Made by a program: the position numbers and the translations under genes | Notes under the pieces: model-generated | The model's database searches: none | What the model saw: only the letters and a program-made list of their open reading frames with translations | What the model was told of the DNA's origin: nothing | Source: a virus | Lineage: Duplodnaviria > Heunggongvirae > Uroviricota > Caudoviricetes | DNA length: 15,464 nt | IMG/VR virus record: IMGVR_UViG_2869953405_000005 | Reading direction: 5' to 3' (one strand) | Part shown: one piece after another, positions 1 through 10,047 of the stretch | Position numbering within the stretch: position 1 is the first letter of the stretch | Layout of the letters: each line of letters begins with the position of its first letter

Positions 1-219
1 TCAGTTTTCCTTATACGGATTAATTTTATTGTGCAGTGTGTTGAACGACGCCCATACAACGTCGGTATACAATTCAGTAACTGGCTCAATTATTTTCCCG
101 ATTGCCCAGACAAAAATTAGAGGGGATATCGGTATCATCAATACGATAAACAGAATGAGAAACAAAAATTCTGTCGCCCTACTTTTTTGCGGATATTCTT
201 TTCTGAATAATGTAGTCAT
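1..219 (-). CDS. hypothetical small membrane protein (72 aa, one predicted TM helix)
   Basis: ORF with stop at 1-3 and ATG at 217-219; hydrophobic stretch FLFLILFIVLMIPISPLIFVWAIG; co-oriented with and 30 bp downstream of ORF 252..464; weak Shine-Dalgarno; no family recognised. Confidence 0.35.
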   Translation of the reverse strand: MTTLFRKEYPQKSRATEFLFLILFIVLMIPISPLIFVWAIGKIIEPVTELYTDVVWASFNTLHNKINPYKEN

Positions 220-251
220 TTCTTACCGCCCTTTCGGGCGGCCTCCCGACA

Positions 252-464
252 TTAATCGTTGTGGTAACTCATGGCTTCATTTGCAGCATCAACCGGATCA
301 ACCTCCCACCAGCAATAATTTGGTGCGTTTCCTTCAGGTGTCCACGGTTCTAATTCATTTTTTGCCACATTCTCGTCGCCAGTAATTTTAAAAATCTGCT
401 CAGAGAATTTTTTCACCCACTCGTTATATTTTTCAGTGTTAATAATTTTCTGTGTATTTGACAT
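252..464 (-). CDS. hypothetical small protein (70 aa)
   Basis: ATG at 462-464 preceded on the minus strand by GGAGGT about 7 nt upstream; no family recognised. Confidence 0.5.
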   Translation of the reverse strand: MSNTQKIINTEKYNEWVKKFSEQIFKITGDENVAKNELEPWTPEGNAPNYCWWEVDPVDAANEAMSYHND

Positions 465-522
465 AGATATACCTCCAGTTAAGGATTAAATTTTATTTAC
501 AGTGCCGGGTAATGACTCCAAC

Positions 523-1026
523 TTATTGATAGTGTTTTATGTTCAGATAATGCCCGATGACTTTGTCATGCAGCTCCACCGATTTTGAGAACGACAGCGA
601 CTTCCGTCCCAGCCGTGCCAGGTGCTGCCTCAGATTCAGGTTATGCCGCTCAATTCGCTGCGTATATCGCTTGCTGATTACGTGCAGCTTTCCCTTCAGG
701 CGGGATTCATACAGCGGCCAGCCATCCGTCATCCATATCACCACGTCAAAGGGTGACAGCAGGCTCATAAGACGCCCCAGCGTCGCCATAGTGCGTTCAC
801 CGAATACGTGCGCAACAACCGTCTTCCGGAGACTGTCATACGCGTAAAACAGCCAGCGCTGGCGCGATTTAGCCCCGACATAGCCCCACTGTTCGTCCAT
901 TTCCGCGCAGACGATGACGTCACTGCCCGGCTGTATGCGCGAGGTTACCGACTGCGGCCTGAGTTTTTTAAGTGACGTAAAATCGTGTTGAGGCCAACGC
1001 CCATAATGCGTGCAGTTGCCCGGCAT
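523..1026 (-). CDS. insB: IS1 InsB transposase component
   Basis: 167-aa ORF matching recalled IS1 InsB; position inside IS1 downstream of insA. Confidence 0.9.
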
Positions 1027-1220
1027 CCAACGCCATTCATGGCCATATCAATGATTTTCTGGTGCGTACCGGGTTGAGAAGCGGTGTAAGTGAACTGCAG
1101 TTGCCATGTTTTACGGCAGTGAGAGCAGAGATAGCGCTGATGTCCGGCAGTGCTTTTGCCGTTACGCACCACCCCGTCAGTAGCTGAACAGGAGGGACAG
1201 CTGATAGAAACAGAAGCCAC
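945..1220 (-). CDS. insA: IS1 InsA
   Basis: 91-aa ORF with CxxC...CxxC zinc-finger N-terminus matching recalled IS1 InsA. Confidence 0.9.
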
Positions 1221-1347
1221 TGGAGCACCTCAAAAACACCATCATACACTAAATCAGTAAGTTGGCAGCATCACCACAGTGCTGAACTTAATTATTCAGA
1301 TTTTGGATTATGCTTTCTCTTCACGAAGTTCCGATTGTTAATTTGGC

Positions 1348-1737
1348 TCACAACAGCACCTTCTGAAAATTACCCTGATAGAAAGCCAGTACACGCTGCA
1401 TAGCTTCGCTCTTCCGGCACTCGCTACAGATTATGTTTTGACGCCTGTCGTAGCGGCGTATTTCTCCGTCTGGTAATGACCAGATAAGGTCAGGATCAAC
1501 CACAGATGGTTTCTTCAGATTTGCCCTTGAGAGTTTTTTGCGGGCGTTTTGCCAGTCCTTACGCGCCTGTTCAGACGGGAATAACCCGTAACCAGAGTTG
1601 TATACATCGCCACTGGCAACCAGCTCTCTGGCGAGAACACTCATCAGATATCTTGTCGCACCTGTCTTGGCTTCCAGTTGCCGCAACGTCTCGCGACCGC
1701 TCAGACGTACAAGTTCAACAACCTGCCCTTTAATTTT
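1348..1737 (-). pseudogene. 5'-truncated gene fragment (HTH-like region), cut by IS600
   Basis: Minus-strand frame is open from the IS600 boundary (1737) to the stop at 1348; the apparent start is only a TTG at 1686 with no RBS; product not recognised. Confidence 0.4.
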
Positions 1738-1801
1738 TGAGGTAGCCTGAGTTTAACGGACACTCCTTCCTGAAATAGAATGGCATCAGAAGGAGCTAAT
1801 A

Positions 1802-2104
1802 ATGAGCAGAAAAACCCAACGTTACTCTAAAGAGTTCAAAGCCGAAGCTGTCAGAACGGTTCCTGAAAATCAACTTTCGATCAGTGAAGGCGCTTCCCGA
1901 TTATCTCTTCCTGAAGGCACTTTAGGACAATGGGTTACCGCCGCCAGAAAAGGGCTCGGTACTCCTGGTTCCCGCACGGTGGCTGAACTGGAATCTGAAA
2001 TTCTGCAACTGCGTAAGGCGTTAAATGAAGCTCGCCTTGAGCGAGATATATTAAAAAAAGCAACAGCGTATTTTGCACAGGAGTCGCTGAAAAATACGCG
2101 TTAA
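1802..2104 (+). CDS. IS600 OrfA (IS3-family transposase, N-terminal HTH part)
   Basis: 100-aa ORF, identical to ORF 10048..10350; RBS GGAG before the ATG. Confidence 0.9.
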   Translation: MSRKTQRYSKEFKAEAVRTVPENQLSISEGASRLSLPEGTLGQWVTAARKGLGTPGSRTVAELESEILQLRKALNEARLERDILKKATAYFAQESLKNTR

Positions 2105-2139
2105 TCGAACAATGGCGACAACAATTTCCCATTGAAGCG

Positions 2140-2958
2140 ATGTGTCAGGTATTTGGTGTATCCAGGAGCGGTTATTACAACTGGGTACAGCATGAACCCT
2201 CAGACAGAAAACAAAGTGATGAGCGGCTAAAACTGGAGATTAAGGTGGCACATATCCGCACTCGCGAAACATATGGAACCCGGCGGCACCAGACGGAGCT
2301 GGCAGAGAATGGCATCATCGTTGGTCGTGACCGACTGGCACGTCTTCGTAAGGAGCTAAGGCTACGCTGTAAGCAGAAACGCAAGTTCAGAGCGACTACG
2401 AACTCGAACCACAATCTGCCAGTTGCGCCAAATCTGCTGAACCAGACGTTCGCTCCTACAGCACCAAATCAGGTCTGGGTGGCGGACCTGACGTATGTTG
2501 CCACACAGGAGGGATGGTTGTACCTCGCTGGCATCAAAGATGTTTATACGTGCGAAATTGTCGGCTACGCCATGGGAGAGCGCATGACAAAAGAGCTGAC
2601 AGGTAAAGCCCTGTTTATGGCGCTCAGGAGCCAGCGCCCACCTGCCGGGCTAATCCACCACTCTGATCGAGGTTCACAGTACTGCGCATACGATTACCGG
2701 GTCATACAGGAGCAGTCTGGTCTGAAAACATCAATGTCGCGTAAAGGTAACTGTTACGACAACGCTCCGATGGAAAGCTTCTGGGGAACGCTGAAAAATG
2801 AGAGCCTGAGCCACTATCGTTTTAATAACCGGGATGAAGCCATCTCAGTAATACGGGAATACATTGAGATTTTCTACAATCGTCAGCGTCGTCACTCTCG
2901 TCTGGGGAATATCTCCCCGGCAGCCTTCAGGGAAAAATATCATCAGATGGCTGCTTAA
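2140..2958 (+). CDS. IS600 OrfB (DDE transposase catalytic part, normally expressed as OrfAB by -1 frameshift)
   Basis: 272-aa ORF in the -1 frame relative to orfA; integrase-core-like sequence (HSDRGSQY...). Confidence 0.9.
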   Translation: MCQVFGVSRSGYYNWVQHEPSDRKQSDERLKLEIKVAHIRTRETYGTRRHQTELAENGIIVGRDRLARLRKELRLRCKQKRKFRATTNSNHNLPVAPNLLNQTFAPTAPNQVWVADLTYVATQEGWLYLAGIKDVYTCEIVGYAMGERMTKELTGKALFMALRSQRPPAGLIHHSDRGSQYCAYDYRVIQEQSGLKTSMSRKGNCYDNAPMESFWGTLKNESLSHYRFNNRDEAISVIREYIEIFYNRQRRHSRLGNISPAAFREKYHQMAA

Positions 2959-3001
2959 AAAAAGAACAAATGGTAGTGTCCGCTATTGCCAGTACACCTC
3001 A

Positions 3002-3388: not shown

Positions 3389-3724
3389 ATGAAGTGGATT
3401 GTGATTGATACAGTTATCCAGCCATCATGCGGAATATCTTTTTCAGTCATATGGAGTAAAATAAAATTAATAATCTGGTATCAATCGGATGCTTTCTTAC
3501 CTCCTGAAAGTATATTTACACTGACTCACACAGGCATCATGCTCAATAACAAAGTGCTACCTGTAACCATTTACAACGTAGTACCATTCAATAAAACATT
3601 CTGGAATTCAATCAAAAATAGCCAGGAATGCCCTACAAATACAGATAACGTATTGAATGAATGCTTTAATAACCGTTGCACTCTGCAAATATGTCCTTAT
3701 GGACTAAAACAACAAAGTCCATAA
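3389..3724 (+). CDS. hypothetical Cys-rich small protein (111 aa), orphan
   Basis: ATG preceded by AAGGA about 8 nt upstream; 6 of 12 Ile codons are ATA (manual count); C-terminal third has 5 Cys; lies in AT-rich DNA; no family recognised. Confidence 0.45.
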
Positions 3725-4990: not shown

Positions 4991-5845
4991 TTATGACGAA
5001 TTTACCACAGATTCCGGAAAAATCAACCTAGTTACCTTTTTTAACTGCCGCTCAGCCCATGCTTCTTCAATATCAAACCGAGTCACCAGCGCATCATAGA
5101 ATTTCTTAACTGTTTTTTCCCATGACGCGCGTGTTATCTGGTTTGTCACCTCGCATATAGCATTAAATGCCTCCGTTGATGGTAGTCTTTCATAGCCACG
5201 ACCACCACAACGCTGGCAGTCTCTGATAACAGGCATACCACGTTTTACCGACTCTTCACGATGAATGGCGACACCACGCCCACGGCAATCCTTACAGGCG
5301 GTGGAAACCTCACCCTTTCCGCCACACTCCGGACAGGCAACTTTTACCACCTCCCTGACTTTTTTCCATTCTTCCCAGTAAGACGGATACACACCTTTCG
5401 TACACTTTGCCCATACCGGCGGCTTACCATCCGGATACTGGACCTTGTTTGTAAAAACTACGCTTTCAATAAATTTTTCCCCATAGCAACAAGGGCACTG
5501 CTTTTTACTCGCTGCGCTGCGGGCATAATCCTCAAAAGCGTACGAAGCCATAATGCGCATCACTACCGGTTTTATTTCTGCCGGAAGTTTTCTCAACGCC
5601 GCCACACGATCGCACCGACTGAGTGCATAATCTGCCAGTAATTCTGTTGCCCGCGCCCTGTCATTCATACTGATGCCCATTTTCCCCAGGAACGCAGAAA
5701 ACCCCATCTCAGCCCGATTCTGTGTCATGCCCTGCGCGGCCATCACATCAGTGATACTCAGCGCATCTTTTGACGTTGAGGCCGATGCATCGGTCAGGCA
5801 AGGGGATTTTGGGGAGTAGTATTTCGGTAAATCTTCCAGTTTCAT
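4991..5845 (-). CDS. putative lambdoid late antiterminator Q-like protein (284 aa, DnaJ-type Zn-finger motifs)
   Basis: Sits between rusA and terminator/tRNAs as in lambdoid late-control regions; CPECGGKG, CKDCRGRG and CQRCGGRG motifs; ATGA overlap with the rusA stop; Q assignment rests on position and motifs, not a verified alignment. Confidence 0.5.
   Translation of the reverse strand: MKLEDLPKYYSPKSPCLTDASASTSKDALSITDVMAAQGMTQNRAEMGFSAFLGKMGISMNDRARATELLADYALSRCDRVAALRKLPAEIKPVVMRIMASYAFEDYARSAASKKQCPCCYGEKFIESVVFTNKVQYPDGKPPVWAKCTKGVYPSYWEEWKKVREVVKVACPECGGKGEVSTACKDCRGRGVAIHREESVKRGMPVIRDCQRCGGRGYERLPSTEAFNAICEVTNQITRASWEKTVKKFYDALVTRFDIEEAWAERQLKKVTRLIFPESVVNSS
4999..5026 (-). promoter_or_regulatory. 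candidate late promoter (pR'-like): TTGATT, 16-nt spacer, TAAATT on the minus strand
   Basis: Hexamers read from the sequence; overlaps the 3' end of the Q-like ORF; predicted start lies about 40-60 nt upstream of the terminator at 4925-4949. Confidence 0.25.
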
Positions 5846-6216
5846 TTTTTGACCTGCTCTTCATGCATTATGGGGTAAATCTTCACCCCCAGACGTCCAC
5901 CAGATACTGGCTGACCACGAACGATATTGATTTCATCAAACTGCTCATCGTCCATTAACACTCCCGCATGTGTCAGTGCATCCAGTGGTGCTTTCAGGAT
6001 ATTGTCCAGGTCACGACGGCGCTTATCCGGTGGCTCTGCAATAATCTTTATCGCCAGTCTTCCGGACAGGCTTAATTTCAGTCGCTGCTGACGGACAATA
6101 AGCGCCACATCCCGGCGATAACGCTCACCGGCTTTTGATACAAAATATGTGTTGTCACGACGTCGCCAGTAAGTATTCACCGTCGGCGGATAAGGTAAAA
6201 TAAACTCATGACGCAT
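5842..6216 (-). CDS. rusA: RusA-family Holliday junction resolvase (124 aa)
   Basis: Resembles recalled E. coli RusA (RRRDLDN... motif region); nin-region position upstream of Q. Confidence 0.8.
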   Translation of the reverse strand: MRHEFILPYPPTVNTYWRRRDNTYFVSKAGERYRRDVALIVRQQRLKLSLSGRLAIKIIAEPPDKRRRDLDNILKAPLDALTHAGVLMDDEQFDEINIVRGQPVSGGRLGVKIYPIMHEEQVKK

Positions 6217-6473
6217 CAGCGCAGCACCTCCTGCACCAGTTTTTCAAACTTTCCGACTCTGGTTTCCAGCTCTGCCACACAGTCCACCAGCTCATCTACT
6301 GCTTTCTGTGCGCGATGCTTCGCCTGCATCAGTTCCCGAAGCGCGGGTACCATATCTTTACGGATAGCGTCTTTTGTTATGCCCGTTTTTTCGAGTTGTT
6401 CAGCATGACGCAGCATTTCCTGCGCGTGTTTACGCAATTGTTCAGGGGTAAAAGTCATTGTCTGGTTGTTCAA
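6216..6473 (-). CDS. hypothetical phage nin-region protein (80-85 aa; start ambiguous: TTG at 6473 or ATG at 6458)
   Basis: Stop overlaps the rusA start (TGATG); helical, charged sequence; no family recognised. Confidence 0.45.
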   Translation of the reverse strand: MNNQTMTFTPEQLRKHAQEMLRHAEQLEKTGITKDAIRKDMVPALRELMQAKHRAQKAVDELVDCVAELETRVGKFEKLVQEVLR

Positions 6474-6807: not shown

Positions 6808-8777
<1,970 letters not shown>

Positions 8778-9931: not shown

Positions 9932-10047
9932 GGGCAAATCCAGTCCGTTATAAAAACGCCGGTAAATCGTTCCCAGAGAACCGTGAGGTAGCCTGAGTTT
10001 AACGGACACTCCTTCCTGAAATAGAATGGCATCAGAAGGAGCTAATA

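Follow-up and report, generated by a model that had tools for sequence, protein, structure and literature searches.

Two small genes at the left edge of the window

The DNA considered in this work (hereafter the window, meaning the whole stretch of 15,464 nucleotides of the IMG/VR virus record IMGVR_UViG_2869953405_000005, assigned to the Caudoviricetes) carries at its left edge two small genes, denoted here as orfA and orfB, both on the minus strand. orfA (252-464) begins with ATG and encodes a protein of 70 residues that starts MSNTQKIINTEKYNEW, and orfB (1-219) encodes one of 72 residues that starts MTTLFRKEYPQKSR; since the TGA stop codon of the latter corresponds to bases 1-3 of the window, orfB is complete. 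An earlier note on this DNA, prepared from the sequence alone, had described two co-oriented open reading frames (ORFs) 30 bp apart. Both are indeed present and share the minus strand, but the gap between them (220-251) measures 32 nt. Other elements of that description were confirmed: the 6-bp GC hairpin at 226-241 is present between the ORFs, the first ORF is preceded by a strong ribosome-binding site (RBS), GGAGGT, at 471-476, with a 6-nt spacer to the orfA ATG, and the end of an insertion sequence (IS), IS1, lies 43 nt before that ATG. Likewise, the proposed combination of one soluble and one single-transmembrane (TM) small protein agrees with the hydropathy of the products, and both genes are intact.

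The note had recognised neither protein, yet both are catalogued. The orfA product is identical (100%) to RefSeq WP_000072553.1, annotated as hypothetical, and matches phrog_4659 from end to end (residues 1-70 of 70, E 4.8e-51). The orfB product is identical (100%) to RefSeq WP_000209148.1, annotated as DUF4014 family; its residues 1-72 align with positions 1-72 of the Pfam profile DUF4014 (PF13198) at 91.8 bits, for a gathering cutoff of 23.2 bits, and it also matches phrog_1832. The hidden Markov model searches that the note had suggested gave, in this way, end-to-end family matches for both proteins. At the nucleotide level, many complete E. coli genomes contain the ~505 bp of the pair with 99.8-100% identity. 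orfA and orfB are real, conserved genes, already included in RefSeq, PHROGs and, for orfB, Pfam as uncharacterised phage proteins.

The ratio of nonsynonymous to synonymous substitutions (dN/dS) was 0.20 for orfA (13 natural alleles) and 0.21 for orfB (44 natural alleles), values of about 0.2 that indicate purifying selection on both genes. The lack of conservation that the earlier note had regarded as fatal to its proposal was, therefore, not observed. The idea that the two ORFs are pieces of one bigger frameshifted gene, or that they arose by chance, has a negligible probability: homologues are 70 and 72 residues long throughout, each ORF has its own Shine-Dalgarno (SD) sequence and start codon, the two are found apart from each other, and both are under purifying selection. 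The frameshift-fragment interpretation was accordingly discarded on the uniform length of the homologues. An antisense ORF of 118 residues (29-385, plus strand) was considered spurious, as stops interrupt it in 8 of 34 divergent alleles.

It is probable, in our judgement, that these genes are best explained as a whole as accessory genes of an early operon that mosaic linkage has brought side by side, with a portable linker between them, and that survive here as relics. Positions 1-464 (minus strand) would then carry two accessory genes, both intact and each mobile on its own, that derive from an early operon in a lambdoid prophage. The finding is real but ordinary, the reusable SD-hairpin linker between the genes being its only mildly new element.

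Native context of orfA and orfB in early operons

In the intact prophages used to establish gene order (L001, L002, L209, L212-L214 and L216-L218), the series runs as cro/YdaS-like, YdaT, an O-like helix-turn-helix protein, a DnaC-like ATPase, DUF1627, DUF977, orfA, orfB, small ORFs, hokD, DUF968 (NinG-like), RusA and Q. The pair is located upstream of Q in every intact prophage examined, on one strand with the rest of the early-right operon, and the genes for holin, lysozyme and Rz are found beyond Q, which in L001 puts them approximately 9 kb away from the pair. This gene order places the pair in the delayed-early transcript of the PR promoter, within a nin-like accessory stretch. Transcription of orfA and orfB would thus start at PR, the two genes following those for replication and preceding the hokD/NinG-like/RusA/Q block.

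The orfB genes of 933W (L0067), epsilon34 (gp27), MG40 (gp26), epsilon15 (gp46) and ArgO145 reside in the exo-xis/ea region, and this early-left orfB of the Shiga toxin (Stx), P22-like and epsilon15-like phages adjoins ead/eaA, xis and int. Two arrangements can therefore be contrasted: in Stx and P22-like phages the DUF4014 gene belongs to the early-left exo-xis/ea region and has an ordinary SD, whereas in the window and in Rac/Qin-like E. coli prophages orfB is an early-right gene preceded by the SD-hairpin linker. In this respect orfA and orfB resemble the nin-region, exo-xis-region and ea genes (morons) of lambdoid phages, which are likewise small, non-essential and mosaic, lie in early operons and are exchanged as modules. 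However, they are not among the lambdoid accessory genes that have been studied (orf60a, orf61, orf63, ea22, ea8.5 and ninA-H).

These data do not agree with the proposal in the earlier note that the pair sits downstream of the late region in late-operon orientation, as its native site in all intact prophages examined is the early-right operon, before Q. The same proposal included a function as a lysis accessory; one form of this idea would make orfB a protein of, for example, the holin, antiholin or spanin-like type, with the pair belonging to the late region. The small size of orfB, its single TM segment and its location in the window, downstream of the gene for the Q antiterminator and on the same strand, fit such a role. 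Nevertheless, the lysis cassette of the intact prophages is elsewhere, with holin, lysozyme and Rz far beyond Q and the pair before it, the P22-like and Stx versions of orfB are neighbours of ead/eaA, xis and int in the early-left region, and IS rearrangement accounts for the seemingly late position that the pair has in the window. The position of orfA and orfB was taken to exclude a lysis role, for which we would leave only a very slight probability.

Linked neighbours rather than a dedicated pair

The earlier note had also regarded the two genes as a cassette, possibly a toxin/immunity pair, and had suggested a check of their co-occurrence across prophages. Among 5426 complete E. coli genomes, orfA was detected in 601 and orfB in 1003, with the contiguous pair (scored as at least 80% of the 506-nt query) in 484. 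A set of 80 IMG/VR loci, chosen solely for encoding DUF4014, contained 35 with orfA directly upstream of orfB and 43 without orfA; in the remaining loci, orfA was found 1.1 kb upstream (L085) or only as a partial match (residues 18-70) 262 bp upstream (L080). In ArgO145, a different gene comes after orfA, and three genes lie between orfA and orfB. By this distribution the two do not form an obligate unit, more than half of the viral orfB loci (43/80) being devoid of orfA; they are separate modules, often linked, and neighbours by mosaic linkage rather than components of a dedicated two-component system.

A toxin-antitoxin or toxin-immunity design, with orfB as the toxin and orfA as the neutraliser, or the reverse, fits poorly with such separate modules, and we consider it improbable. 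In its favour, the genes are adjacent and co-oriented in the 484 genomes just mentioned, orfA encodes a small acidic protein, and orfB encodes a small single-pass membrane protein, a class whose members are often toxic. However, approximately half of the orfB genomes and all Stx and P22-like phages examined are without orfA, the gene after orfA in ArgO145 is a different one, and neither protein had a match to a PADLOC family at E <= 1 or to a Pfam family related to toxin-antitoxin systems. Both genes are, moreover, embedded in a long polycistronic early operon, and a scan of positions 1-1400 brought out no private promoter above the chance level, with two promoter-like sites, compared to 2.2 expected by chance, and none between DUF977 and orfA. 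The cassette or toxin/immunity proposal was abandoned on the basis that the genes are apart in most contexts and lack a PADLOC match. One figure does weigh against mosaic linkage as the whole explanation, namely that about 80% of the genomes with orfA (484/601) have an adjacent orfB, and it leaves a small chance of some functional link between the two genes.

The SD-hairpin linker

The gap between orfA and orfB reads, on the coding strand, UGUC-GGGAGG-CCGCCC-GAAA-GGGCGG-UAAGAA-AUG. It consists of a GGGAGG SD (242-247, minus strand) that abuts the 5' side of a GC hairpin (226-241, minus strand; CCGCCC-GAAA-GGGCGG, with a GNRA tetraloop and a dG of -12.4 kcal/mol), followed by an A-rich 6-nt spacer without SD, TAAGAA (220-225, minus strand), between the hairpin and the orfB ATG; at other loci the spacer is TAATGA or TAATAA. 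The hairpin is part of the minimum free energy fold in its 91-nt context (z -2.67). GGGAGG is the only good SD for orfB and is located 22 nt from its AUG (219-217), a distance that becomes 6 nt when the 16-nt hairpin is skipped. The hairpin was also considered as an intrinsic terminator and discarded, since the sequence that follows it (UAAGAAAUG) has no U-tract and a terminator scan made no call. A search of positions 1-1400 against Rfam gave no match.

The linker unit, TC[A/G]GGAGG-CCGCCCGAAAGGGCGG-UA, is not specific to the orfA-orfB junction. At least 120 viral contigs contain the exact 23-mer, always 6-9 nt before a start codon, and the genes that follow it encode DUF4014 (~44), a 60-residue DUF7167-like protein (~49) or a family of 135-163 residues (~28). 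GGAGG always abuts the hairpin on its 5' side, and 89 of 126 occurrences have no ORF ending immediately before them. The DUF4014 loci can be divided into three classes: those with orfA, linker and orfB; those with a conserved leader, the linker and orfB but without orfA; and those without linker, in which an ordinary GGAG is found 5-7 nt before the orfB start. The variants observed in the hairpin (CCGCCU, GGGUGG and a GGAA loop, which is still GNRA) are all compatible with the structure, the changes in the arms forming G.U pairs. The homology breakpoints of phage matches to the window (215/216, 224/225 and 249/250) correspond to the edges of the linker.

These features are reminiscent of the split RBSs of bacteriophage T4. 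In T4 gene 38, a distance of 22 nt between SD and AUG is cut to 5 by an intervening structure that enhances initiation, and in T4 gene 25, where the structure likewise enhances initiation, 27 nt are cut to 11 (PMC3014915). The linker shares with them an SD that is too distant (22 nt) and a stable stem-loop lying wholly between SD and start codon, and its residual 6 nt fall within the 5-11 range. It differs in that it belongs to lambdoid prophages, is portable, stands before at least three unrelated genes and has a GNRA tetraloop. By analogy with T4, the linker (~25 nt, composed of the SD GGAGG, the GNRA hairpin, 6 nt and AUG) would serve as a hairpin-bridged, or split, RBS for the gene downstream, a function to which we would give even odds. 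It would also serve as a joint for homologous recombination that reshuffles small gene modules; its recurrence before different genes makes such a role a probable one, although here too our confidence is evenly balanced.

Two points weigh against the split RBS. No compensatory double change was found in the hairpin, the variants being limited to the three single ones described, all of them structure-compatible. In addition, GGGCGG in the 3' arm may itself act as an SD, weak and masked, in which case the hairpin could repress translation rather than enhance it. Such a GGCGG-masking repressor is one of several other roles that could be assigned to the hairpin, the others being an element downstream of orfA that serves to stabilise or process the mRNA 3' end, and a neutral recombination scar. 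The hairpin is very stable and begins 10 nt after the orfA stop codon, its 3' arm with the next base gives the SD-like GGGCGGT, and the mosaic breakpoints coincide with the linker. However, most occurrences (the 89 of 126 given above) are not tied to the 3' end of an upstream gene, a downstream start codon is always found at 6-9 nt with GGAGG always on the 5' side, and the orfB alleles that lack the hairpin carry a normal SD instead. For these reasons we regard this group of explanations as clearly the less probable, at perhaps one chance in five for all of them, and favour the split RBS. If both proposed functions were true, the linker would illustrate cleanly the way in which lambdoid phages exchange small accessory genes and have them expressed, and would be a further case of the known split-RBS kind.

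Single prophages often contain two copies of the linker approximately 1064 bp apart, as in L001 (~11176 and ~12241), and other loci with the linker are L099, L115, L147 and L155. The leader of orfA, including its RBS (465-490, minus strand; TTTAATCCTTAACTGGAGGTATATCT, with the GGAGGT mentioned above), is conserved beyond orfA itself: the same 26 nt (TTTAATCCTTAACYGGAGGKATWTCT) are present upstream of orfB in loci without orfA (L005, L006 and L034), where ~14 nt occupy the place of the entire orfA ORF before the SD-hairpin. As the leader is kept in these loci, orfA behaves as a discrete insertion or deletion in a conserved intergenic "socket".

The orfA protein and its family

The orfA product is acidic (pI 4.5, with 13 Asp and Glu compared to 6 Lys and Arg) and contains four Trp. 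It has no hydrophobic segment, its best 19-residue Kyte-Doolittle window (KD19) reaching only -0.38, and the protein is, by these properties, soluble and cytoplasmic. An AlphaFold (AF2) model predicts a three-helix protein (helices 3-28 and 31-38, a loop, and helix 57-66) with a mean predicted local distance difference test score (pLDDT) of 81.7 and a predicted template modelling score of 0.70. The model gave no significant fold match, the family profile produced only noise against PDB sequences, and there was no match in Pfam, NCBIfam or PADLOC. In the family alignment, the invariant positions are Y13, W16, F20, S21, E37-L-E39, W41, D56-P-V-D59, A61, N62 and S66.

Members of the family from Escherichia and Shigella share at least 83% identity, identical proteins being abundantly labelled as Shigella sonnei, and more distant relatives (41-54% identity) include those named from Phytobacter ursingii, Salmonella enterica and Klebsiella. 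An exhaustive HMMER search with orfA retrieved, besides truncated close copies, only proteins of 75 and 93 residues as true relatives (46-47% identity), and a profile search with the orfA alignment added only a few enterobacterial hypothetical proteins, one of them named from Klebsiella pneumoniae. Three giant proteins (2565-3770 residues) that appeared as relatives were rejected as artefacts, their scores being the sum of weak repeat matches. By these searches, orfA represents an orphan family confined to prophages of the Enterobacteriaceae. It corresponds to phrog_4659 (the WP_000072553.1 family), with identity to the RefSeq protein and an end-to-end match to the PHROG; orfA-type sequences are limited to Escherichia and Shigella plus the relatives at 41-54%. 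The size, charge and conservation pattern of the protein suggest, tentatively, that orfA is a small binder that would inhibit a cytoplasmic host factor.

The orfB protein and the DUF4014 family

The orfB product has one strongly hydrophobic segment at approximately residues 18-41 (KD19 2.96). Since the N-terminal flank of this segment has a net charge of +3 and the C-terminal flank one of -2, orfB is predicted to be a bitopic inner-membrane protein with its N-terminus in the cytoplasm and its C-terminus outside (N-in/C-out). The topology prediction suggested in the earlier note thus returned a single TM helix with a defined orientation. The TM helix carries a conserved kink, P30-I-S-P33, and the family alignment revealed an invariant C-terminal tail, E45..E49.Y51..W56..F59..L62-H-N-K65.N67-P68, in which conservation is strongest. 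orfB has the hallmark of DUF4014 proteins, that is, one hydrophobic helix followed by a conserved W..F..LHNKINPY tail. In the AF2 model (pLDDT 81.7), a kinked helix (14-28) continues into a long extramembrane helix (32-66). No informative homologue or fold match was found for orfB, and the DUF4014 alignment had no match among PDB sequences.

Among the members of DUF4014/phrog_1832 (933W L0067, epsilon15 gp46, epsilon34 gp27 and ES18 gp39), orfB shares the length of 72 residues, the TM segment and the LHNKINPY tail, with 93% identity to the copies of Stx phages and ~51% to those of Salmonella phages. The concentration of conserved residues in the tail suggests a specific partner outside the membrane core. 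Through the tail, orfB may bind and modulate a protein of the host envelope early in lytic growth, possibly for superinfection exclusion or to inhibit an envelope enzyme. Several phage proteins, namely epsilon15 gp22 and gp28, D3 Iap, Gnarl1-3, T4 Imm and P22 SieA, are comparable to orfA and orfB in size range and accessory status and, in the case of orfB, in membrane location. No homology to these small inhibitors of envelope functions was detected, and orfB belongs to early lytic operons instead of being a lysogenic-conversion gene. Some points weigh against the roles envisaged for the two proteins: they are drawn from size, charge, topology and conservation pattern only, the orfB topology is itself a prediction, and a literature search gave nothing on DUF4014 or L0067, nor experiments on either protein.

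A separate matter is that of the functional names propagated among DUF4014 records (epsilon15 gp46, epsilon34 gp27, MG40 gp26, ArgO145 and several from E. coli). Those in circulation are "released from the phage upon host infection" and "(sugar/O-polysaccharide) acetyltransferase inhibitor", and no homology or literature support was found for either of them; the epsilon34 genome paper does not discuss gp27, and the papers on the exo-xis region do not treat the DUF4014 gene. Nonetheless, inhibition by orfB of an O-antigen acetyltransferase, or of another O-antigen enzyme, deserves consideration. The source names "sugar acetyltransferase inhibitor" and "O-polysaccharide acetyltransferase inhibitor" point to it, DUF4014 is carried by O-antigen-specific phages (epsilon15, epsilon34 and P22-like), small phage proteins that change the O-antigen exist (Gnarl1-3, PMC12373910), and in one local stretch, PRKS..E.LFLI, orfB weakly resembles gp28, the "transacetylase repressor" of epsilon15. 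In epsilon15, however, the repressor role is credited to gp28, and the DUF4014 member is gp46. The similarity to gp28 is restricted to a juxtamembrane stretch of 20-29 residues (BLASTP over 29 residues, E 0.007 in a single pairwise comparison), and the comparison of the orfB profile with gp28 by hhalign yielded a probability of 29% over 20 TM-proximal columns that leave the invariant C-terminal motif outside. Furthermore, orfB had no match to the epsilon15 alpha-polymerase inhibitor, neither the orfA nor the orfB peptide occurs in the supplementary files of the Gnarl paper (PMC12373910), and the literature search found no experiment. We consider an action on O-antigen enzymes unlikely, if somewhat less so than a toxin-antitoxin function, and the unsupported DUF4014 names should not be propagated.

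IS elements and the relic state of the prophage

In the window, the surroundings of the pair have been extensively altered by IS elements. An IS1 of 768 bp (508-1275, minus strand; insA 945-1220 and insB 523-1026, co-oriented with orfA and orfB) is flanked by 9-bp target duplications, ACAGTGCCG on the left (499-507, defined against the empty site in L001) and ACAGTGCTG on the right (1276-1284). The duplication has the consensus ACAGTGC[C/T]G, and the empty site is found in E. coli ATCC 25922, the strain whose intact prophage, at potC, is L001. The terminal inverted repeats (GGTAATGAC.../...GCATCACC) are those of IS1, and L210 and L215 share this insertion. Next follows a 5'-truncated DUF977 gene (1348-1738, minus strand; Pfam PF06163, 7.6e-21), the native upstream neighbour of orfA; positions 1276-1738 align with 7966-7505 of L214, whose DUF977 gene spans 7473-7895. 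An IS600-like element of the IS3 family (1739-3001, plus strand; ORFs 1802-2104 and 2140-2958) truncates DUF977, and the rest of the operon has been removed. Positions 1-1738 are, therefore, a fragment of an early-right operon. Up to position 3001 the window is 99.9% identical to L210 and L215, and the genomes L210, L211 and L215 show this identity over 1-3001 with the IS1 and IS600 insertions included.

The leftward extension of the window that the earlier note had recommended could be made by means of these near-identical genomes, in which the prophage ends 69 bp past the orfB stop codon. In L215 (8464-8900), similarity to intact prophages stops at that point, and the small gene that follows forms an in-frame fusion with the 3' end of a tyrosine integrase gene that abuts the chromosomal ompW-yciCBA; the gene layout in L210 and L211 matches. 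As homology ends so soon after orfB, the pair is a terminal scrap of a deleted prophage. The IS1 located 43 nt upstream has cut the pair off from its native operon, and the IS600-like element has removed the promoter-proximal part. By this comparison with intact prophages, orfA and orfB are here stranded relics that have lost PR and the whole promoter-proximal operon. Their expression would need read-through from IS1 or a fortuitous promoter; scans of the region for promoters and terminators gave results at chance level. For this window the pair matters little: it is already catalogued, it is probably silent, and it survives as a relic within a prophage remnant of Shigella type that IS elements have scrambled.

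IS-mediated scrambling also accounts for the position of the pair downstream of Q in the window. The RusA and Q genes at 4991-6216, the source of the late-context impression, belong to a different, rearranged block. This separate prophage fragment (4991-6473, minus strand) contains RusA at 5842-6216 and the Q antiterminator gene at 4991-5845; the block is only ~94% identical to its counterpart in L210 and is differently arranged, from which IS-mediated rearrangement between strains can be deduced. The fragment also includes an ORF of 111 residues in the opposite orientation (3389-3724, plus strand), which has no Pfam match and is found at the site where intact prophages carry an IraM/PmrD-like gene. 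At 9984-12023, a second IS1 (10498-11266) is nested in an IS600-like element; aligned with a contiguous copy in L210, the two halves of this element overlap by 9 bp, which correspond to the IS1 target duplication. The window also has an IS21, and its right end is occupied by a gene for an IpaH-type effector (13713-15464, minus strand) with LRR_TTSS and NEL E3 ligase domains, whose ORF starts at the right window edge, so that the true start may lie beyond. This gene identifies the region as an ipaH island or a prophage remnant of Shigella type. The combination of IS21, the nested IS1/IS600 and this ipaH-type NEL E3 ligase gene points to a chromosome of Shigella type.

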